DNA of 64,000 nt, from UHGV virus genome UHGV-0141541. One strand, written 5' to 3'. The notes under the pieces were generated by a model. It was not told the DNA's origin. It ran no database searches and saw only the letters and a program-made list of their open reading frames with translations. Made by a program: the position numbers and the translations under genes. Below, piece after piece: positions 6,124-25,979 of the stretch. Position 1 is the stretch's first letter, and each line of letters starts with the position of its first letter. Origin of the DNA: a virus.

Positions 6124-7380
6124 CTATCGAGAACCACCAAGAATAACACGGTTTTTGACTGGATACCTACGATGTACTGGATAGCCCAATGCGTCTGCAC
6201 TATGCTCAATGCCACCTGTCTTATCCATATCTCGTGTTCCAGGCTTGTAGATGACTTTTTCCAGTGAATCAATCAAATGCTTGCACTTCGGATCGATATA
6301 CAGCCGGATATCTCCAGATGCGGACATCAGCATTCGGTTAACAGCATTAACACGATCCGCAATTGGCGGGTGCTTTTTCGAATAATCGACACGTAAGAAT
6401 CCCTTCTCTTTGAATATGTCTACGTCAGACTCCCCACGAGCATGTTGGCGATAAGCACCTGCCGGATCTGGAAATACCGTTACCTGTGATTTCCAGCGCC
6501 AGAAGCGTCTCTCAAGCTCATCACAAACTTCTGCCGTGTTAGAGGAAAAGAGCACCAATTCATCAATTGCCCATAGCTCACCATTTGGCTGAGGTTGCAA
6601 AATTACTGAAGACATCGGGTCAATGTTGAAGTCCTGCCCTACCCATATAGGCAACCGAGGGTTGAACTGAAGCGGTTTTACATGCACGTTACGATCGAAC
6701 GGGTAGTAAACGCGCCCGGACATGTTCTCAAAGCTGGCCAGGTACTCCTGAGCGAACGATTTGGGGTCCATATCGTTCTTAGCAGCTTCAATTTCCGCCG
6801 TAGGTACAAACGGAGAATCGGCAGTTACAAACTGCCAGCTCTTCCACTGTCCCTTTCTTTGCAGCTCTACGTTCTGGCCTATAGTCCACAGTTTGTGAAA
6901 TTCCGAGAAGCCTTTTGGCGTACCAATGATCAGTGCACCGCCGCGTGTCGATGAAAGAGTAGGTCGTAACACCTTGTACCAGGTGTCAGCCTTCATATCC
7001 TGAAATTCATCAAGCACTACAAAATGCAACGCTACGCCGCGCAGAGTGTCAGGCTTATCAGCACCTTTGAGGGCGATCTCCGAACCGTTCTTCAACACGA
7101 TTGTCATCGTGGTGTCGTTCTTTTTCCTAACCCACTTACGAGGCAGAACTTCCTGTAGATCGTCCCACAAAATCTGGCGAGCCATCTGGTAAGTAGGAGC
7201 GACATACCAGACCCTTTGCTTTTTTTCCTTTGCCGCCGCACGAATAATAGTGGAGATCGACAACCGGGATTTTCCCCAGCGTCGACCAGCACAAACAACT
7301 TTAAATCGATGCGGAGACTGGAAGACTTTCATCTGTCCAGAATGCAGTTGCACAAGACTGAGCGAGGACGGGATTGCCAT
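6124..7380 (-). CDS. terminase large subunit
   Basis: 418 aa; Walker A-like CAGRRWGKS, Walker B VVLDEF, C-terminal nuclease-like region; precedes portal. Confidence 0.85.
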   Translation of the reverse strand: MAIPSSLSLVQLHSGQMKVFQSPHRFKVVCAGRRWGKSRLSISTIIRAAAKEKKQRVWYVAPTYQMARQILWDDLQEVLPRKWVRKKNDTTMTIVLKNGSEIALKGADKPDTLRGVALHFVVLDEFQDMKADTWYKVLRPTLSSTRGGALIIGTPKGFSEFHKLWTIGQNVELQRKGQWKSWQFVTADSPFVPTAEIEAAKNDMDPKSFAQEYLASFENMSGRVYYPFDRNVHVKPLQFNPRLPIWVGQDFNIDPMSSVILQPQPNGELWAIDELVLFSSNTAEVCDELERRFWRWKSQVTVFPDPAGAYRQHARGESDVDIFKEKGFLRVDYSKKHPPIADRVNAVNRMLMSASGDIRLYIDPKCKHLIDSLEKVIYKPGTRDMDKTGGIEHSADALGYPVHRRYPVKNRVILGGSR

Positions 7381-8012
7381 TATTCGTCCTCCCCTTCACT
7401 TCCATCATCTGTCGCATCAAATTCGCTTAGAGCTTCTTCTTCCAACGTCTCAAGCAATTCGTCATCGATGATTTCAGGCTCGTCGTCTTCCTGACGTAAT
7501 TTCGCCACCTGGGAAGGCGTAAGCTCACCAAATACCAGGTTCGGAATTTCTTCCTCGTCATTTTCCGCATGATCCATGCCCAATGCTTTGGACGAAACTT
7601 CAAAGCATTTTGCAAGGGTATTACTGGCTCTCTGTAAGCTCTTGAGAGAATCCTCAATCGCCCCTAAAGGCTTACCCTCACGTTTGGCCGTAGTGACTTC
7701 GACCATCACCATCTGCCCCAACGCATACGCCCAGCCGTCATAACGTGTACGACGTTCTTCTATCTTTTCCGCACGGGCTTTAGCGCGAAGCTCTGCGTCA
7801 GATTTAAGAGACTCACGAACCATCTTCCCAACAGAGTCCGCGCCTTTCTCTAATCCTCGCTTTTTGAAATGTCTGGAGAGTGTTTCACGACGAATGCCGT
7901 ACTCTTCCTCCAGCTTTGAGAGTGTATATTCGCCTGACGTCCATTTGGCTTCAGCTTCGGCCCACTCCGCTGGTGTCAGGCGAGTTTTTACCTCGTCTTT
8001 TTCGACCGTCAT
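7380..8012 (-). CDS. terminase small subunit (putative)
   Basis: 210 aa, overlaps terL start by 1 nt; N-terminal helix-turn-helix-like region and very acidic C-terminus; RBS GAGGG upstream. Confidence 0.5.
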   Translation of the reverse strand: MTVEKDEVKTRLTPAEWAEAEAKWTSGEYTLSKLEEEYGIRRETLSRHFKKRGLEKGADSVGKMVRESLKSDAELRAKARAEKIEERRTRYDGWAYALGQMVMVEVTTAKREGKPLGAIEDSLKSLQRASNTLAKCFEVSSKALGMDHAENDEEEIPNLVFGELTPSQVAKLRQEDDEPEIIDDELLETLEEEALSEFDATDDGSEGEDE

Positions 8013-13330: not shown

Positions 13331-13795
13331 ATGAAGTCTCCCATACTGTTCACTTTCTGTTCTAAAACTATCATGAAATACTCGCTTCTCCCTCTACTAA
13401 CGTTACCAGTGTTGATGCTTACCGCGTGCCAATCACGCCCAATATCAATCCATGACGCCAAACCAGCACCGCAGGCCAAAGTGTTCAAGTATCAAAGCGC
13501 AGCGCCAGCTACGTTGGTGGTAATGAGAGACACAGGTTTTGTAGGAGCTGGATGTGATGCTTCCATTTTCATCAACGGCGAAACTGTCGCAAAACTGGCT
13601 ACAGGCGAAAAAGCGACTTTCCATTTAAATGCCGGAGAATTAATTGTGGGTGCATCTCTTGAAGGTGCAGGTTTATGTGCTCTAAACCCCGCTCGTCAAG
13701 AGCGAGAAACGACTCTGAAGAATAGAGACACAAAAGCGTTCAGGGTGTTCACCAGCAATTCTGGTGACATCGACATTCTGCCAACAACTCTGTGA
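13331..13795 (+). CDS. putative lipoprotein
   Basis: 154 aa; RBS GGGAG; signal peptide with lipobox LTAC. Confidence 0.6.
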   Translation: MKSPILFTFCSKTIMKYSLLPLLTLPVLMLTACQSRPISIHDAKPAPQAKVFKYQSAAPATLVVMRDTGFVGAGCDASIFINGETVAKLATGEKATFHLNAGELIVGASLEGAGLCALNPARQERETTLKNRDTKAFRVFTSNSGDIDILPTTL

Positions 13796-13799
13796 TGAC

Positions 13800-14324
13800 A
13801 TGACAACCAAAGATATTACCTACGGTATCCAAGCTGAACTCTGGCCGCGAGATTACACTAACGTTGAAAAACTACTGATGTTCTGGCGCAGAGAACAAAT
13901 TCCTGTAAGGGTCACTCTCGAAGATGGCCAGGCGTTTTGCATGTACGTTTATGGCCTCATGCCATCTCGTAACAAAGTTGACCTTTGCCCAGCCCCTTTT
14001 GACAAAGAAAATCGTATAAGGCTCCCACTTGAACGCATTAGTACAATTGAATCAGGTGTGGTTGACAGTATCGCTCACGATTTCAAAGGTCGACTAACAG
14101 TTCACCCTGATTATGTCGATAATCGGCCATCACGCCGCGATTTTTTTGCAATTTGCAACCAAGCCTACAAAGCAAACAAATCTATAAGGGTGTACATGGC
14201 GGATGGCCGTGAAATTGAGGGGGTGTCAGCAGGCGCAGATGCTTGTCAGGTTACACTACGTGTCGAGAACGGTAGAAAAATAGTTGTTTTGTTCGATTGG
14301 GTTGAACGAATTTTGCCTTTTTGA
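13800..14324 (+). CDS. hypothetical protein
   Basis: ORF track 13764-14324; start moved to MTTKD just after the upstream stop. Confidence 0.5.
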   Translation: MTTKDITYGIQAELWPRDYTNVEKLLMFWRREQIPVRVTLEDGQAFCMYVYGLMPSRNKVDLCPAPFDKENRIRLPLERISTIESGVVDSIAHDFKGRLTVHPDYVDNRPSRRDFFAICNQAYKANKSIRVYMADGREIEGVSAGADACQVTLRVENGRKIVVLFDWVERILPF

Positions 14325-14327
14325 GTT

Positions 14328-14636
14328 ATGAAATCGATATTGTTACCACCATTATTTTTACTTTGCTCAGTTGCGGCAAATGCAATGGACTATAAGCCTG
14401 TCATTCAGTCGCTGATGAATGACGTGTGCTCAACGTCTCAGAATGTATCAGTTTGCATGTATCAATTTTCGGCAGCCGTAAAAGCAGGAAAAGCGATAGG
14501 TGAGAATGTGGAACTGTGTAAGAAAGTGGCAAATGAAGAACGGGCAATGTTGGATTGCGAATCTAGCGAGTCATCGGCACAGTTCGTTGATACGCTATTT
14601 GACACCAATCGTAAGGCTGTAGAGTCTGTTCAATAA
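14328..14636 (+). CDS. small secreted protein (signal peptide)
   Basis: 102 aa; N-terminal hydrophobic signal MKSILLPPLFLLCSVAANA. Confidence 0.5.
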   Translation: MKSILLPPLFLLCSVAANAMDYKPVIQSLMNDVCSTSQNVSVCMYQFSAAVKAGKAIGENVELCKKVANEERAMLDCESSESSAQFVDTLFDTNRKAVESVQ

Positions 14637-14648
14637 ATCTATAAGGTT

Positions 14649-14680
14649 AATAACCGGCTAAGTCCGGTTATTATTTTTCA
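14649..14680 (+). terminator. intrinsic terminator
   Basis: hairpin AACCGG-CTAAGT-CCGGTT followed by T-run ATTATTTTT after the 14328-14636 gene. Confidence 0.5.
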
Positions 14681-14826
14681 TATCACTTCTTTATATCTAC
14701 AAATCAAATAACCTAAATATATATAAGGTCTAAAGCCGCAATCGATTATTTATTTAGGGAACACCTTCGACGATCTCGCTTTTATTTCTAGGACTTTCAT
14801 CCCTGCAAAAAATTTTAAAAAAACAC

Positions 14827-14854
14827 TTGCAATCTTTTTTCGCGTATCGATAAT
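14827..14854 (+). promoter_or_regulatory. sigma70-like promoter of AT-rich cassette
   Basis: TTGCAA - 16 bp - GATAAT about 65 bp upstream of the 14920 start codon; read by eye, not scored. Confidence 0.35.
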
Positions 14855-14919
14855 TGAACTCGTCGAAAGCGAAGACGCTAACGACAATAAATTTTAAATT
14901 TACATAAGGAAAAATTATC

Positions 14920-15570
14920 ATGGCTAACATTATCATTTCTAAAAAGTCCATCATTGAAGCTGCATCTATTGTATCCGACGAGCTGCGCGAAAAAGCAGAT
15001 CTGGCAACTCAAACATATAACGAACATTATAAATATGGTACGCACACTAAAGCAGACAAAGCAAATATGCAAGCTGCGACCACTAAACTTGCTTACTTCA
15101 TCAACAACGTCGTAAACGCAGTAGAAGACGAAAAATTATGCTCTGTTTTCTACTATGCGATTAAAGCAAGCAAACAAGCGCCAGAAGTATTTTTCCGTGA
15201 TGCAATGACTAATAGTTATTCTCTGGAAAAACTGGTTTATCTGGTTAAATCAATTAAATCTGGTAAATGCGTTTATTCCATCGCTGATATGTCAGGATCT
15301 CGTGTATTCGCTTTAATCGATATGATTAACGACGAGATCGACACGTTCACCAATGGCGCTGTTTTCGATTTAATGAATGAAGCTAAAAAAGCGTGTGAAA
15401 TTAAATTGGACGCTGGCTATACTCAAGCCAACCAGTTGATCAATCTTTGCGAACGTCTCGGACTTGTTGAAAAAGTCAAAGGAGCTGGGAGCGCCAAAGC
15501 TGGTACGCAGCAATATCGCTTCATTAAAAATGATTTCTACAATTATTTAGCTGATGCTTTCAAAGCGTAA
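14920..15570 (+). CDS. hypothetical protein (AT-rich accessory cassette gene 1)
   Basis: 216 aa; strong RBS AGGA; markedly AT-rich relative to surrounding genes; no motif recognised. Confidence 0.6.
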   Translation: MANIIISKKSIIEAASIVSDELREKADLATQTYNEHYKYGTHTKADKANMQAATTKLAYFINNVVNAVEDEKLCSVFYYAIKASKQAPEVFFRDAMTNSYSLEKLVYLVKSIKSGKCVYSIADMSGSRVFALIDMINDEIDTFTNGAVFDLMNEAKKACEIKLDAGYTQANQLINLCERLGLVEKVKGAGSAKAGTQQYRFIKNDFYNYLADAFKA

Positions 15571-15583
15571 TTAATGGAATCAA

Positions 15584-15603
15584 GCGCCCACTATGGGCGC
15601 TTT
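15584..15603 (+). terminator. intergenic hairpin (attenuator) within cassette
   Basis: GCGCCCA-CTA-TGGGCGC followed by TTT; the identical 17-mer recurs at 16080. Confidence 0.45.
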
Positions 15604-15618
15604 AAAGGAGCTTTAAAA

Positions 15619-15822
15619 ATGGTCAGCTATGACAAGATCCGCGCAGAATATCGCGCAAAGTATCGCGCTTATAAACTGGAATTAATCGATGATTTGATCG
15701 CGCAACGCGACCAATTAAATTTTACGTTTTCTGATTTGCTTAACAGCAAGCGAGATTGCAAGCGCAAACGTGAATACTTACGTTTAAGCGCATTAATCGG
15801 AAAACTTCAAAATTCTATTTAA
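15619..15822 (+). CDS. hypothetical protein (cassette gene 2)
   Basis: ORF track 15574-15822; start moved to MVSYDK (RBS AAGGAG 9 nt upstream) because the upstream part overlaps the hairpin; 67 aa. Confidence 0.5.
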   Translation: MVSYDKIRAEYRAKYRAYKLELIDDLIAQRDQLNFTFSDLLNSKRDCKRKREYLRLSALIGKLQNSI

Positions 15823-15842
15823 TTTTTTTAAGGAGCTTAATC

Positions 15843-16073
15843 ATGTTTGTTCTTATCGCTGGCGTTAACGTCCATAACGAATATTATGTTAATCGCATCG
15901 CTGGGATCGCTGGTTACGCTGGGCGCGCAGTCGAGCTTATAGATGAAACAACGCGCAAAATTGACTTATTGAGCGACCAGGAGCGAAAAAAAGCAGACGT
16001 GAACGACGCTGATATATTTTTAATGTTAAAAGCGTTTGTAGAAATGGGATTTGAAATCAGTTTACATAAATAA
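15843..16073 (+). CDS. hypothetical protein (cassette gene 3)
   Basis: 76 aa; RBS AAGGAG; AT-rich. Confidence 0.5.
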   Translation: MFVLIAGVNVHNEYYVNRIAGIAGYAGRAVELIDETTRKIDLLSDQERKKADVNDADIFLMLKAFVEMGFEISLHK

Positions 16074-16078
16074 AATCG

Positions 16079-16103
16079 AGCGCCCACTATGGGCGCTTTT
16101 TTC
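16079..16103 (+). terminator. intrinsic terminator
   Basis: GCGCCCACTATGGGCGC hairpin followed by TTTTTT. Confidence 0.6.
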
Positions 16104-16123
16104 GTTTCCAATACTTCCACCAT

Positions 16124-16149
16124 AACGCGCCATCATTGGCGCGTTTTTT
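16124..16149 (+). terminator. second tandem intrinsic terminator
   Basis: ACGCGCC-ATCATT-GGCGCGT hairpin followed by TTTTTTA. Confidence 0.6.
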
Positions 16150-16559
16150 ATTGTCTTTAGCTCACTCCAACAACATAAAAATAAGCGCCAAAATAACGCC
16201 ATAGACGCGCTTTTATATCCTTGTCAGTACATACCCATTACTTAACACATTAACGCGCTTAAAATGAGTTATATTGCGCTATAACGTATGGCTAATCATT
16301 AATTTTTATTCTTGCTATGTGATCCGCGTTTATTTGTCGGCGCGGATCGGCATTTTGTTTTGTTCCGTATCCGCTCGCGTATTATGTGCGCGTGATTTTT
16401 CACATAATCACACCACTTAATCACGTATGTGATTACGCTACGAAAGAAATCTGGATGTCTCAGGCGACGAAAGTCATCATAATTTTCCCCGCTCACCTGT
16501 CCGACAACCGCTGGTTGGATTCCACCAGCTTCCCGATGTTTTTTCTACACAAAGGCGAA

Positions 16560-16680
16560 TGCAGCCGTTTCCCGAAAAAATCCTGGCCGTTCCCCGTCGG
16601 CTCATGAATACGTTCCTCGCCGTTTCTGAAAATTTCCCTGCGGCAGCTGGTGGCTATAGAGAAAGGGCCGTTTCTGGCCC
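16560..16680. repeat. iteron-like direct repeats, consensus GCCGTTTCCCGAA (4 copies)
   Basis: copies at about 16564, 16586, 16619 and 16668 in a noncoding stretch; same family recurs at 19690-19830. Confidence 0.6.
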
Positions 16681-19689: not shown

Positions 19690-19830
19690 CGCCGCCGTTC
19701 CTGAACCGGCATCGAGCCTTTTCCCGAAACCCACACAGGCAACTCGACCGTTTCCCTGAAAATCCCCAGCCGTTCCCCGAAGGCAACCCAGCCGTTTCTG
19801 TAGCGGGATGCAGCCTTTTCCCTGTATGGA
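19690..19830. repeat. iteron-like direct repeats, consensus RCCGTTTCCCGAA (6 copies)
   Basis: copies at about 19693, 19715, 19745, 19767, 19789 and 19811. Confidence 0.6.
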
Positions 19831-19859: not shown

Positions 19860-20780
19860 GGGATAAAATCAGGAGTTGAATAAATACGAAAAAGGAGGCG
19901 ACACCCCTCCTTCCCTCCCCACTTATACATACCTGGCTTCTTCGCTATACATGTTGTGTTTTCTTCGTGTTTTATCTGTCTCAACCTCTCTATAGGCGTT
20001 AATGCTCACTCCTTCCAGAACGTTCTATACGGCGACTATTTCTGTTGGTGAATTGGGTGTGTTGTTCTCTCTGTCGGTGTATGTGGTTTCGTTCGTTTTG
20101 CGGTGGTTCTTCTATGGGGTGTTCTCGTCGTTTTGGTGATTGTTCTTCTCCGTGTATGGAGTAATGGCAGGTGGGCGATTCCTTTCGTTATTGTGTTTGA
20201 GTTGTTTGTCTGGAGTGCGTGAAGGGCTTTTGTAGTTATTCGTGTATTGGGTAATGGCGTTTCCCGTGATTGTTATGTTTCGTGTCTTTTGGGATTGAGA
20301 GAAACCTTGCGGTTACAGGCTTCGTTGGGGTTTCAGCGGTTCAGGTGTTTCTTCGCTGTTTGGGTAATGGCGTGTCGTGGGTATCGCGCGTATGAATGTT
20401 TTCGGATTGCCTGTGAAAGTTAGGTTGGTTGTCCGGTAGCCTGGGGAGAAGAGGTGGGTCTTTTCGGTAGCCTGCCATAAAGAGGTTGGTTGTTTTGGGT
20501 AATGGCATATGTGTTATTTGGTTGTTTTGTTATGCCTGAAAATAAGTTGTTTATATGGTTGTGTAACGCAACGGGAGCGATTTTGAGCGTGTGTTTTTGT
20601 TGGTAGTGTGTTGAGTCGTCTGTGGTGAAATTTGGACGCTGTGGCGCTATCTGCTGCGTAGAATTACGGGTATAAGAAGTGATGTGTGATAACGTCAATT
20701 TTTTAGACCAAATCGGGAGAAAGCGTTGATGTTTCGTTGATCTGTTATTTAGTTGTTTTCTTATTGGTATAAACAACCAT
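19860..20780. other. GT-rich noncoding tract with internal repeats (no credible ORF)
   Basis: strong G+T excess on the given strand; repeated GGGTAATGGC (about 4 copies) and a ~60-bp unit shared with 17259-17320. Confidence 0.5.
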
Positions 20781-20895
20781 AACCTATTGATATTTAATGA
20801 TGTGATTGCTGGTATGGGAGGGTAGTAGTGGCGATCAACGGGTTCTTATAGAAAAGAATCAAATTGTGACCGCCATTATCAATAAGTTGCAACCG

Positions 20896-22260: not shown

Positions 22261-24294
22261 TTACTTAACCTGGTGGCCAGGTTTAGCACCAGCATCCGGG
22301 CTTAACAGGAAGATATCTTTCCCGCCGGGGCCAGCAGCCATCACCATGCCTTCAGAGATACCGAAGCGCATTTTACGCGGAGCCAGGTTAGCCACCATAA
22401 TGGTGTGACGACCAATCAGTGCCTGTGGATCTGGATAAGCGGAACGGATGCCTGAGAAGACATTACGCTTTTCACCACCGAGATCCAGCGTCAGGCGAAG
22501 CAGTTTGTCAGAACCTTCGACAAACTCCGCGTTTTCAATCAGCGCCACACGCAGGTCAACTTTGGCGAAGTCGTCAAAGGTGATGGTTTCCTGAATCGGG
22601 TCGTCAGCCAGTGGGCCAGTTACCGGTGCAGCTGTGGCTTTCACTTCTTCTTTGGATGCTTCCACCAGTGCTTCCACCTGTTTCATATCGATACGGTTAT
22701 ACAGTGCCTTGAACGGATTCACTTTATGGCCCAGCAGCGGTTGCTGGATACCATCCCAAGTCAGTTCTGTATTCAGGAATGCTTCTGCACGTTCAGTCAG
22801 TTTCGGCAGTACCGGTTTCAGGTACGTCATCAGCACGCGGAACAGGTTAATGCCCATAGAGCAAATCGCCTGCAGATCGGCATCGCGTCCTTCCTGCTTC
22901 GCCACCACCCACGGAGCCTGTTCATCGACATAGCGGTTAGCCAGATCAGCCAGCGCCATGATTTCACGAATCGCTTTACCAAATTCGCGGCTTTCCCATG
23001 CTTCACCAATCACTTCAGCGGCATCAGTAAAGGTTTTGTACAGTTGCGGGTCAGCCAGTTCGCCTGCCAGCACACCGTCAAAACGCTTATTGATAAAGCC
23101 CGCGTTACGGGACGCCAGATTCACCACTTTGTTCACGATATCGGCATTCACGCGCTGAACGAAATCCTCCAGGTTGAGATCGATATCATCAATGCGCGAA
23201 GAGAGTTTCGCAGTGTAGTAGTAACGCAGGCTGTCAGCGTCAAAATGATTCAGCCAGGTGCTGGCTTTAATAAAGGTGCCGCGAGACTTGGACATCTTCG
23301 CACCGTTCACCGTCACATAGCCATGAACAAACAGGTTGGTCGGCTTGCGGAAGTTGCTGCCTTCCAGCATGGCAGGCCAGAACAGGCTGTGGAAGTAAAC
23401 GATATCTTTACCGATGAAGTGGTACAGCTCGGCGGTGGAGTCTTTCTTCCAGTATTCGTCGAAGCTGGTAGTGTCGCCGCGTTTGTCGCACAGATTCTTG
23501 AAGGAACCCATGTAGCCAATCGGTGCGTCCAGCCAGACGTAGAAGTATTTGCCCGGTGCGTTCGGAATTTCAAAACCGAAGTAAGGTGCGTCACGGGAGA
23601 TATCCCACTGTTGCAGGCCAGATTCAAACCACTCCTGCATTTTGTTTGCCACCTGCTCCTGCAACGCACCGCTGCGGGTCCATGCCTGCAACATTTCGCT
23701 GAAAGAAGGCAGATCAAAGAAGAAGTGTTCGGAATCACGCATTACCGGTGTAGCGCCAGAAACCACTGATTTCGGCTCGATCAGTTCCGTCGGGCTGTAG
23801 GTCGCGCCGCAGACTTCACAGTTATCGCCGTATTGATCCGGCGCTTTACATTTCGGGCATGTGCCTTTTACAAAACGGTCCGGCAGGAACATGCCTTTTT
23901 CCGGGTCGTACAGCTGAGAGATGGTGCGGTTTTTAATAAAACCGTTCTCTTTCAGGCGAGTATAGATAAGCTCGGACAACTGACGGTTCTCTTCGCTGTG
24001 CGTCGAGTGATAGTTGTCATAGCTGATGTTAAAGCCTGCGAAATCAGTCTGATGTTCCTGACTCATTTCGCCAATCATCTGTTCCGGTGTGATACCAAGC
24101 TGCTGTGCTTTCAGCATGATTGGCGTACCGTGGGCATCGTCGGCACAGATGAAATTAACCTCGTGGCCGCGCATTCGCTGGTAACGAACCCAGACATCAG
24201 CCTGGATGTGCTCCAGCATATGGCCGAGGTGGATTGAGCCGTTAGCGTACGGCAGCGCGCACGTCACCAGAATTTTCTTCGCGACTTGGGTCAT
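22261..24294 (-). CDS. metG: methionine--tRNA ligase, host-type
   Basis: 677 aa starting [26 protein letters not shown] (HIGH motif), KMSKS present, C-terminal tRNA-binding domain; the 720-aa ORF-track start is an upstream extension. Confidence 0.95.
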
Positions 24295-24451
24295 AGTAGG
24301 CATTACTTCTTTGTAGTGAAAAGGGGCTTGATAGTAACAAAATGGCCTTATGTCTGCCATGTGATAACAGCATTTCTCATAAATGATTAAATGTCGTAGC
24401 TGGAGTACACTACAAGGCGACAATTGCGCAAATTAAAATAAAGGAGACGGG

Positions 24452-25589: not shown

Positions 25590-25979
25590 CTACATCACGG
25601 GACAATCATCAAACTCGCCACTTCTTGCGTCGTTGATAATGTGAGTGATCACACCAAACACGGCATTGCTGCCCGTGCATCCATCGTCATCCTTTGGCAA
25701 TGCTTCCTTCTTACCGGTTCTTAAATCCTCCAGATGCTGACGTGGGTACTTCCGGTATCTTTTTACGCGATATTCCCCATCCAGAGCGCATACAAGCAGA
25801 GAACCATCAACCGGGGTAAGTGAGGAATCGACCACCAGCAATGCACCCTGTAATATTCCCTCACGATGATGACTATCAGCTGCCCTCATGAAGTAGGTCG
25901 CTGAAGGATGTCTAATTATCTGCTGATCAAGAGAAATACGGCTCTCAGCATAATCCGCCGCAGGAGAAGGGAAGCCCAT
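25590..25979 (-). CDS. UmuD'-like protein (P1 HumD-like), lacking the N-terminal cleavable arm
   Basis: 129 aa starting MGFPSPAADY, matching E. coli UmuD from Gly25 (the UmuD' start); ADSH in place of GDSM. Confidence 0.75.
   Translation of the reverse strand: MGFPSPAADYAESRISLDQQIIRHPSATYFMRAADSHHREGILQGALLVVDSSLTPVDGSLLVCALDGEYRVKRYRKYPRQHLEDLRTGKKEALPKDDDGCTGSNAVFGVITHIINDARSGEFDDCPVM

Follow-up and report, generated by a model that had tools for sequence, protein, structure and literature searches.

An AT-rich transcription unit of SSU5-type phage-plasmids that joins a core gene to a hairpin-linked slot for small genes

In the viral genome UHGV-0141541, of which a stretch of 64,000 nucleotides was analysed (called the window below), three small genes lie together in an AT-rich run at positions 14700–16150. 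The question that this locus raises is whether it is a passenger of the element or a part of the element's own programme. A first-pass annotation had read it as a horizontally acquired, independently expressed accessory cassette, which implies a function in the lysogen as a moron or in defence. We have found that the unit is a conserved module of a clinically common phage-plasmid family and not a recently acquired accessory cassette. Our overall reading, to which we give a rough probability of 0.55, is that the locus is a self-contained SSU5-type unit that stays silent while the element resides as a plasmid (lysogeny) and is built for burst expression in the lytic phase, with a slot in which small genes are linked by hairpins.

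The region is 100% identical to the E. coli plasmid pS2-S1K81-2, and it matches Salmonella phage SSU5, Escherichia phage Cyrano (pLF82) and many phage-plasmids from Klebsiella, Enterobacter, Citrobacter, Yersinia and Cronobacter at 82–97% identity. Judged by these matches, the element is a member of the SSU5/Cyrano phage-plasmid family, and the replicon that carries the unit is a 112-kb plasmid. The cassette was matched in 768 PLSDB plasmids; of 5,426 complete E. coli genomes, 240 have it, plasmid-borne every time. For comparison we have used 83 SSU5-like loci (80 from IMG/VR and three annotated records); slot architectures were counted over 80 complete loci, and the 230 nt 5' of gene 1 were aligned for 16 diverse relatives with gene 1 identities of 61–100%. 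The most distant relatives are two Xenorhabdus contigs of ~102–109 kb, from X. hominickii (L086) and X. szentirmaii (L087). The databases annotate the cassette genes as 'hypothetical protein', except for the label 'MIT family metal ion transporter' on gene 2 homologues.

Much of what the first-pass annotation described is borne out. The three open reading frames (ORFs) are present exactly where it had placed them (Table 1), and the run is indeed AT-rich: its GC content is 0.382 against a window mean of 0.462 (standard deviation 0.028 over equal-sized segments), which puts it at the 1.8th percentile as the second-lowest stretch within the window. The strong AAGGAG ribosome-binding site (RBS) proposed for the genes is found before gene 2 (15605–15610) and gene 3 (15830–15835), while gene 1 has AAGGA (14906–14910). 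The median ratios of non-synonymous to synonymous substitution rates (dN/dS) are 0.07, 0.06 and 0.20 for genes 1, 2 and 3, respectively; since all three ORFs are under purifying selection, they are genuine genes. The annotation had recognised no motif in the proteins, and in our searches of Pfam, NCBIfam, PADLOC and PDB sequences nothing significant was found for any of the three, none of which matches a curated family. An Rfam scan of the whole window matched no family either. The tandem terminators that had been claimed are both there, each with a GC-rich stem followed by a U-tract; the folding energy of the region is -31.5 kcal/mol (z = -6.1), and the second terminator is kept in relatives with a variable loop. 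With a terminator upstream, its own conserved predicted promoter and tandem terminators downstream, the locus is a self-contained transcription unit.

Gene 1 is the constant part of this unit. It is present in 83/83 loci at the same position, between an FljA-like gene and m160 (a 160-aa minus-strand gene), with amino-acid identities of 61–100%. The two Xenorhabdus contigs carry a relative of ~33% identity in a shared order of helicase, orf91, intervening genes, FljA-like gene (the last in L086) and gene 1. Homologues are confined to contigs of ~100–112 kb, and an exhaustive profile search of 1.84 billion proteins returned 24 representatives, all of them family members or fragments. The GC content of gene 1 is 0.373–0.420 in the 83 loci vs 0.44–0.52 for the neighbouring helicase, and the synonymous divergence between gene 1 lineages is saturated (synonymous substitution rate, dS, ~1.1). 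As every lineage has kept the low GC despite this divergence, it is an old, maintained property, not a scar of acquisition. That is, the proposed horizontal accessory character fails for gene 1 and stands for genes 2 and 3: the comparison across relatives that had been suggested as a check shows a universal gene 1 with low GC throughout, and two further genes that come and go. Despite its low GC, gene 1 is also rich in optimal codons (frequency of optimal codons, Fop, 0.657), as in a gene designed for high expression, ranking sixth of 85 genes in a list headed by a probable capsid gene; the ranking uses an Ikemura-type set of E. coli optimal codons.

The AlphaFold2 model of the gene 1 product (pLDDT 82.7) consists of a long antiparallel helical hairpin (residues 8–69), a helical linker and a C-terminal winged helix. 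In the latter, a helix-turn-helix (HTH) formed by helix 145–158 and a putative recognition helix, 168–179, is followed by a beta-hairpin wing (183–201). The putative recognition helix, Y-T-Q-A-N-Q-L-I-N-L-C-E-R-L-G, has residues that are invariant or near-invariant even in distant relatives. A Foldseek search of BFVD gave matches to the winged-helix subdomain, no full-length structural analogue was found in BFVD or PDB, and the sub-threshold Pfam matches fall in the winged-helix families DUF2250, FtsK_gamma, ANAPC2 and linker histone. Judged from this model, the gene 1 product is probably a family-specific DNA-binding protein with a dimer-like helical hairpin. Two other assignments were rejected. 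As a plasmid Rep it does not qualify, the RepA of Cyrano being a different gene that lies elsewhere and is expressed in the lysogen; nor is it the small terminase, since TerS is the ORF directly 5' of TerL (CYRAN_1; window 7380–8012).

The control region of gene 1 is unusually conserved. Although TTGCAA-16-GATAAT as a bare consensus occurs at chance level (11 sites found vs 11.2 expected), the sigma70-like promoter that had been claimed at this place is maintained in the family: in the 16 relatives CTTG at the -35 element and (C)GATAAT at the -10 element are invariant, with an A-tract upstream. The three blocks farther upstream, which have the family forms ATATAAGG, ATTTATTTAGGGAACACCTTCG and TTTATTTCTA(A/G)GACTTT at a spacing of ~31 bp, are unchanged across the same relatives; they are kept in X. 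hominickii (~33% protein identity) and degenerate in X. szentirmaii. We presume that they are binding sites of a regulator. Downstream, a conserved leader element starts at about the predicted +1, (A/G)TCGAAAGC...GCTAACGA(T/C), and folds into a two-part stem-loop with a minimum free energy of -9.8 kcal/mol (z = -1.9). Over 29 distinct sequences 93.5% of the cells are paired; at the outer pair 23 sequences have A-U, 6 have G-C and none has a mismatch, and the fourth inner pair covaries partly. In X. hominickii the leader is diverged yet recognisable. Outside this locus, the 112-kb plasmid has no copy of the leader palindrome, of its half-site or of the upstream blocks, and the leader element is also unique in the window. 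Having no other copies in the plasmid, these motifs are therefore private to the gene 1 promoter, and on the same ground we have rejected them as operators of a global prophage repressor. No evident similarity was seen between the gene 1 leader and the 5' leader of E. coli fliC.

Expression of the unit in a lysogen can be read from one public data set, the LF82 transcriptomes with Cyrano (PMC9928086, S1 Table), given as log2(FPKM+5), with FPKM for fragments per kilobase per million and a floor of 2.32. In overnight LB, gene 1 (CYRAN_113) is at 2.78 and 2.32, and gene 3 (CYRAN_112) is at 2.32 in both samples. The normalised values are 5.9 for gene 1 and 4.99 (the floor) for gene 3, where the median is 9.8 and the cut-off for a moron 49, and the moron screen of the authors did not flag either gene. 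In the same samples the neighbours are at 18 (FljA-like), 29 (lipoprotein), 114 (orf92), 46 (helicase) and 26 (m160), and the maintenance and repressor genes at 133 (RepA), 50 (ParA) and 148 (LexA-like S24 protein). Both genes go up only together with late structural genes; for gene 1, a value of log2 ~5.6 is reached solely in the macrophage samples taken at 6 h, in which the transcripts of capsid and tail genes increase as well (PMC9928086). Since the operon upstream is transcribed in Cyrano while the unit is silent, the unit is autonomous, as had been claimed, and off in lysogeny, with a lytic-type profile. Overall, the locus is most likely a tightly repressed, burst-expressed lytic-phase operon, whose timing we infer to be early.

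Behind gene 1, the content of the unit changes from genome to genome. Eight architectures are found in the 80 complete loci: gene 1 is followed by gene 2 (25 loci), by gene 3 (17), by both genes as in the window (16), by no small gene (8), by a distant 67-aa homologue of gene 2 (5), by g3', a paralogue of gene 3 that is 45% identical to it and occurs in other genomes (4), by gene 2 and g3' (3), or by g3' and gene 3 (2). Gene 2 itself is thus present in 44/80 loci, and genes 2 and 3 have been gained, lost and swapped independently.

The borders of these exchanges coincide with a hairpin. The identical 17-bp hairpin pointed out after gene 1 and after gene 3, GCGCCCACTATGGGCGC, has exactly two copies, at 15584–15600 and 16080–16096 (0.09 chance matches expected), and no further copy in the remainder of the 112-kb plasmid; the true repeat is 26 nt with one mismatch, AATC[A/G]AGCGCCCACTATGGGCGCTTT, at 15578–15603 and 16074–16099. 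In the eight gene-1-only genomes, AGCGCCCACTATGGGCGCT, TTTTTT and the second terminator come in this order after the stop codon. In the other genomes the small genes sit exactly between the stem of the gene 1 terminator and its T-tract, with two or three hairpin copies, the extra copy standing after the last small gene and often after each. The stem GCGCCCA/TGGGCGC is unchanged in 82/83 loci, both after gene 1 and at the slot end, with 1–3 copies per locus; in the three-hairpin loci (L021, L025) it also stands between the small genes. The 3-nt loop, in turn, varies even among 99.5% identical genomes (CTA, TAG, TTA, CAA, TTG and others). TAG is the exact inversion (reverse complement) of CTA, and this swap is seen repeatedly with a constant stem (loci L004–L083), which suggests repeated inversion of the loop, or template switching, at the palindrome. 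In the Xenorhabdus relatives the terminator is an ordinary one built on another stem, ATCCGCT/AGCGGAT, and small genes are absent.

In all eight architectures the junctions fall at the hairpin plus RBS linker, and a promoter scan of the linkers 15571–15618 and 15823–15842 found no promoter-like site; beside the hairpin they hold a T-run and AAGGAG and nothing more. On the simplest reading, the hairpin and the adjoining TTTAAGGAGCTTAA RBS serve as a short homology linker, at which unequal or inter-element recombination would add, remove and swap promoterless genes. Because only UUU stands behind its stem, the first hairpin is a weak terminator at best; we propose that it acts as a leaky terminator, a stabiliser of the mRNA 3' end and a recombination linker.

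The two small proteins are of different kinds. The gene 2 product is basic (pI 9.7) and hydrophilic (grand average of hydropathy, GRAVY, -0.65), with no hydrophobic segment and a helical prediction from composition only; its homologues are found only in SSU5-like elements, and no database match is informative. We have rejected the MIT/CorA transporter assignment: such transporters have ~300 aa, two C-terminal transmembrane helices and a GMN motif, while gene 2 encodes 67 hydrophilic residues with no Pfam CorA match. As the protein is short, hydrophilic and basic and has no transmembrane segment, the label on its homologue SSU5_119 is a propagated annotation error; phrog_6145 is filed as moron/auxiliary metabolic gene. 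The gene 3 product is acidic (pI 5.2) and is modelled as beta-alpha-beta-beta-alpha-beta, an ACT-like arrangement of moderate confidence (the other four models have pLDDT 43–52); there is no Pfam ACT match. The structure prediction and Foldseek search that had been suggested as a check have thus given a winged helix for gene 1 and this model for gene 3.

Putting these pieces together, the unit might work as follows. Host RNA polymerase would start at the family-invariant sigma70 promoter with its A-tract, next to the three conserved upstream blocks, and the transcript would open with the conserved stem-loop. Gene 1 would be translated efficiently into a winged-helix protein with a near-invariant recognition helix. 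The hairpin after gene 1 would originally have been the gene 1 terminator, its T-tract here being reduced to three U, so that part of the transcription may read through it into the riders, genes 2 and 3, until the second hairpin copy with T6 and then the further terminator end it. The hairpin-plus-RBS linker of ~26–37 nt at the cassette boundaries could serve as a homology patch for exchange of small genes among co-infecting relatives. In the plasmid state the unit could be silenced by a regulator bound to the upstream blocks, by H-NS on the AT-rich DNA, or by the FljA-like protein as an RNA-binding repressor on the leader. The last candidate is suggested by conserved synteny and by analogy with the mode of FljA, which acts post-transcriptionally according to a passage of PMC2652032 that cites Bonifield & Hughes 2003 and Yamamoto & Kutsukake 2006.

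Two neighbouring features should be described before the alternatives are weighed. The FljA homologue (13764–14324) matches Pfam Flag1_repress at E = 1.9e-84 and has a weak Hfq-like match; it lies directly 5' of gene 1 in 83/83 loci and in X. hominickii, and its transcript is present in the Cyrano lysogen. Its target may be host flagellin, which it would repress, or the gene 1 leader. Downstream of the unit, an iteron-like motif, GCCGTTTC(C/T)(C/G), has four copies at 16564–16676 and six at 19694–19822 with a periodicity of ~22 bp. The two clusters are ~3 kb apart and bracket a block of small minus-strand genes. Allowing at most one mismatch, the GCCGTTTC motif has 27 matches in the window vs 12.3 expected, 10 of them in the two clusters, and the first cluster is kept in all aligned relatives including Xenorhabdus.

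These arrays open the possibility that gene 1 serves plasmid maintenance, as an adaptor that, like TubR, ParR or KfrA, binds centromeres or iterons, here the GCCGTTTC(C/T) arrays 0.5 and 3.6 kb downstream. Such a role fits poorly with the silence in the lysogen, where RepA and ParA of Cyrano are expressed while gene 1 is at the floor. In addition, no cognate NTPase gene is adjacent, the array motifs are absent from the gene 1 promoter region, and a strong promoter, RBS and codon bias are atypical of a low-abundance partition adaptor, so we consider this role unlikely. We are more doubtful still of a bolder form of the lytic reading, in which gene 1 would be the master lytic DNA-binding protein that reads, through its near-invariant recognition helix, the AGG(G/A)AC direct repeats upstream and/or the GCCGTTTC(C/T) arrays and switches the element from plasmid to lytic state, with its mRNA gated in the lysogen by the FljA-like repressor at the leader; if true, a flagellar phase-variation regulator would have been turned into a post-transcriptional gate between lysis and lysogeny. 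The moron-type cassette, horizontally acquired and expressed from the prophage or plasmid for phage defence, superinfection exclusion or toxicity, would account for the own promoter and terminators, the atypical composition, the variable presence of genes 2 and 3 and the filing of phrog_6145 under 'moron, auxiliary metabolic gene and host takeover'. However, gene 1 occurs in every locus in the same gene order and has long been AT-rich, the RNA-seq values of the cassette in Cyrano lie at the floor, the authors' moron list does not include it, PADLOC has no matches, and the PHROG category depends on the spurious 'MIT transporter' label of a 67-aa soluble basic protein. All this makes it an improbable explanation, and the implied role in the lysogen is contradicted by the data set at hand.

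Of the two explanations that concern the slot, a toxin-antitoxin-like or inhibitor pair formed by genes 2 and 3 is hardly credible. Small size, opposite charge and adjacency in the window would suit such a pair, while each gene mostly occurs without the other (the 25 loci with genes 1 and 2 only, the 17 with genes 1 and 3 only), neither has its own promoter, expression of gene 3 in the Cyrano lysogen does not exceed the floor, and Pfam and PADLOC give no matches. The 17-nt palindrome might, on the other hand, be primarily a site for protein recognition or recombination, for example an operator of a gene 1 dimer or a cruciform/hairpin target, and this would be compatible with the lytic-unit reading. 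The invariant stem with up to three copies per locus speaks for it, as do the lack of any compensatory change in a setting where the flanking non-coding DNA and the synonymous sites have reached saturation, the hypervariable loop with its repeated exact inversion, and an 8-3-8 symmetry that suits a dimeric HTH protein. Against this, the gene-1-only genomes have a textbook terminator (stem plus T6), Xenorhabdus keeps the recognition helix and yet has a different stem, and homogenisation by frequent recombination would equally preserve the stems. As the primary function of the palindrome, we regard this as rather unlikely.

Several points weigh against the reading of the locus as a lytic unit with a hairpin-linked slot, which we nevertheless prefer. 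The expression data come from one relative of 91% DNA identity that lacks gene 2, as bulk RNA-seq of overnight LB and macrophage samples, and the lytic timing is deduced from a small co-rise with late genes. Leaky termination at the first hairpin is a prediction, and the invariant stem could reflect protein recognition instead of termination or homology. A single leader pair covaries cleanly, and the leader is not retained in X. szentirmaii. For the proteins, gene 1 matches no curated winged-HTH family of Pfam or NCBIfam at threshold, the ferredoxin-like fold of the gene 3 model is very common, and that model is only moderately confident.

Table 1 Features of the unit and its borders (positions in the window)
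Feature	Positions	Strand	Description
Intrinsic terminator of the preceding operon (helicase ... FljA-like ... orf102)	14648–14678	+	10-bp stem TAATAACCGG/CCGGTTATTA, then T-run; 5' boundary of the unit
Three conserved upstream blocks	14717–14797	+	ATATAAGG 14721–14728, ATTTATTTAGGGAACACCTTCG 14750–14771, TTTATTTCTAGGACTTT 14781–14797
Predicted promoter	14806–14854	+	A/T-rich UP-like tract 14806–14826, -35 TTGCAA 14827–14832, 16-nt spacer, -10 GATAAT 14849–14854
Leader stem-loop/palindrome, 5'-terminal	14862–14885	+	GUCG-AA-AGCG-AAGA-CGCU-AA-CGAC
Gene 1	14920–15570	+	216 aa, phrog_1513, core protein
Hairpin copy 1	15582–15602	+	9-bp stem, loop CUA, then UUU only, then RBS of gene 2; fold -16 kcal/mol
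Gene 2	15619–15822	+	67 aa from RBS-proximal ATG, phrog_6145, variable slot occupant
Gene 3	15843–16073	+	76 aa, phrog_1585, variable slot occupant
Hairpin copy 2 + T6, first full intrinsic terminator	16078–16104	+	hairpin 16078–16098
Second intrinsic terminator	16124–16151	+	AACGCGCCA-TCAT-TGGCGCGTT + T6; hairpin 16124–16145

Other features were noted around the unit. Between the FljA-like gene and the cassette, a 102-aa ORF (14328–14636; phrog_9536) with a signal-peptide-like N-terminus is present in only some relatives, as a second small variable slot closed by the terminator listed first in Table 1. Past the terminators, ATAACGC-like short repeats are found at 16118–16290, and the convergent intergenic region holds a non-coding motif, TTAAAATG(A/G)(G/C)TTATATTGCG (16255–16285), that is common to the E. 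coli element and X. hominickii (L086, 5990–6020). The stretch 19900–20800, which adjoins the second GCCGTTTC array, is G+T-rich, with a GC skew of +0.4 to +0.5, an AT skew of -0.4 to -0.6 and no obvious long plus-strand ORF, and could be an origin-associated or non-coding region. Farther on, the minus strand encodes a full-length, metG-like methionine-tRNA ligase (22261–24423) and a 129-aa ORF (25590–25979) that, by gene order relative to CYRAN_98–100, should match the LexA-like S24 peptidase of Cyrano. The latter, highly expressed in the lysogen, is a candidate master repressor.

Clinical Enterobacterales commonly harbour SSU5-type phage-plasmids, which also carry resistance genes and whose regulation is almost unstudied. 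Gene 1, as a predicted DNA-binding protein with unusually conserved cis-elements, thus offers a tractable entry to the lytic programme, while the slot provides a clean natural case of terminator-hairpin-mediated gene shuffling outside T4-type phages. The on/off distribution of the ORFan families of genes 2 and 3 invites tests for host takeover or anti-defence, and the propagated transporter mis-annotation of gene 2 homologues is corrected here.

Compared with known systems, the parts of the unit have only partial counterparts. Gene 1 shows no sequence-level membership in ArsR/SmtB, MarR or TubR (identity 9–19%), and it differs from winged-helix factors in its N-terminal helical hairpin architecture of 115 residues, which has no full-length PDB or BFVD match, and in having no evident ligand or metal site. 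Gene 3, by its moderately confident model, may be compared with stand-alone ACT/RAM-like proteins and, unlike the regulatory domains of aspartokinase, prephenate dehydratase, Rel and Lrp/AsnC, has no attached enzyme or HTH domain. Like the cassettes of integrons, the slot sets variable, promoterless small ORFs with inverted repeats behind a single promoter, but the resemblance is formal only. An integron attC is imperfect, 57–141 bp long, with R''-L''/L'-R' boxes and extrahelical bases, whereas the slot element is a perfect 17-nt hairpin; we have rejected an integron-type attC on size, on structure and because no IntI is adjacent, the sole annotated integrase of the plasmid lying ~55 kb away. 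In a paper on integron sites in phages, SSU5 receives only a passing mention. With the morons of lambdoid phages the unit shares an autonomous promoter and terminator, a deviating composition and a place between conserved modules; unlike them, it has a core gene 1 that keeps its synteny across genera, it is silent in the single lysogen for which expression is on record, and its variable genes lack their own promoters.

The closest documented analogue is the promoter-early stem-loop (PeSL) mobile regulatory cassette of T4-type phages (PMC2839356, Arbiol et al. 2010; PMC4122927, Comeau et al. 2014). In both cases small, non-essential ORFan genes are bordered by copies of a terminator stem-loop motif, close relatives differ by indels and replacements at this motif, and recombination between the repeats would account for the shuffling. 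They differ in the linker, which is a stem-loop plus an early promoter in PeSL and a stem-loop plus an RBS in the slot, where the riders would rely on read-through from the gene 1 promoter. They also differ in setting, PeSL cassettes being many and lying in hyperplastic regions of a virulent myovirus, while the slot is one site behind one core gene of a temperate phage-plasmid. Excised mini-circles are a feature of PeSL cassettes. Overall, the locus combines known kinds, an early/lytic transcription unit and PeSL-like shuffling, and calls for no new category.

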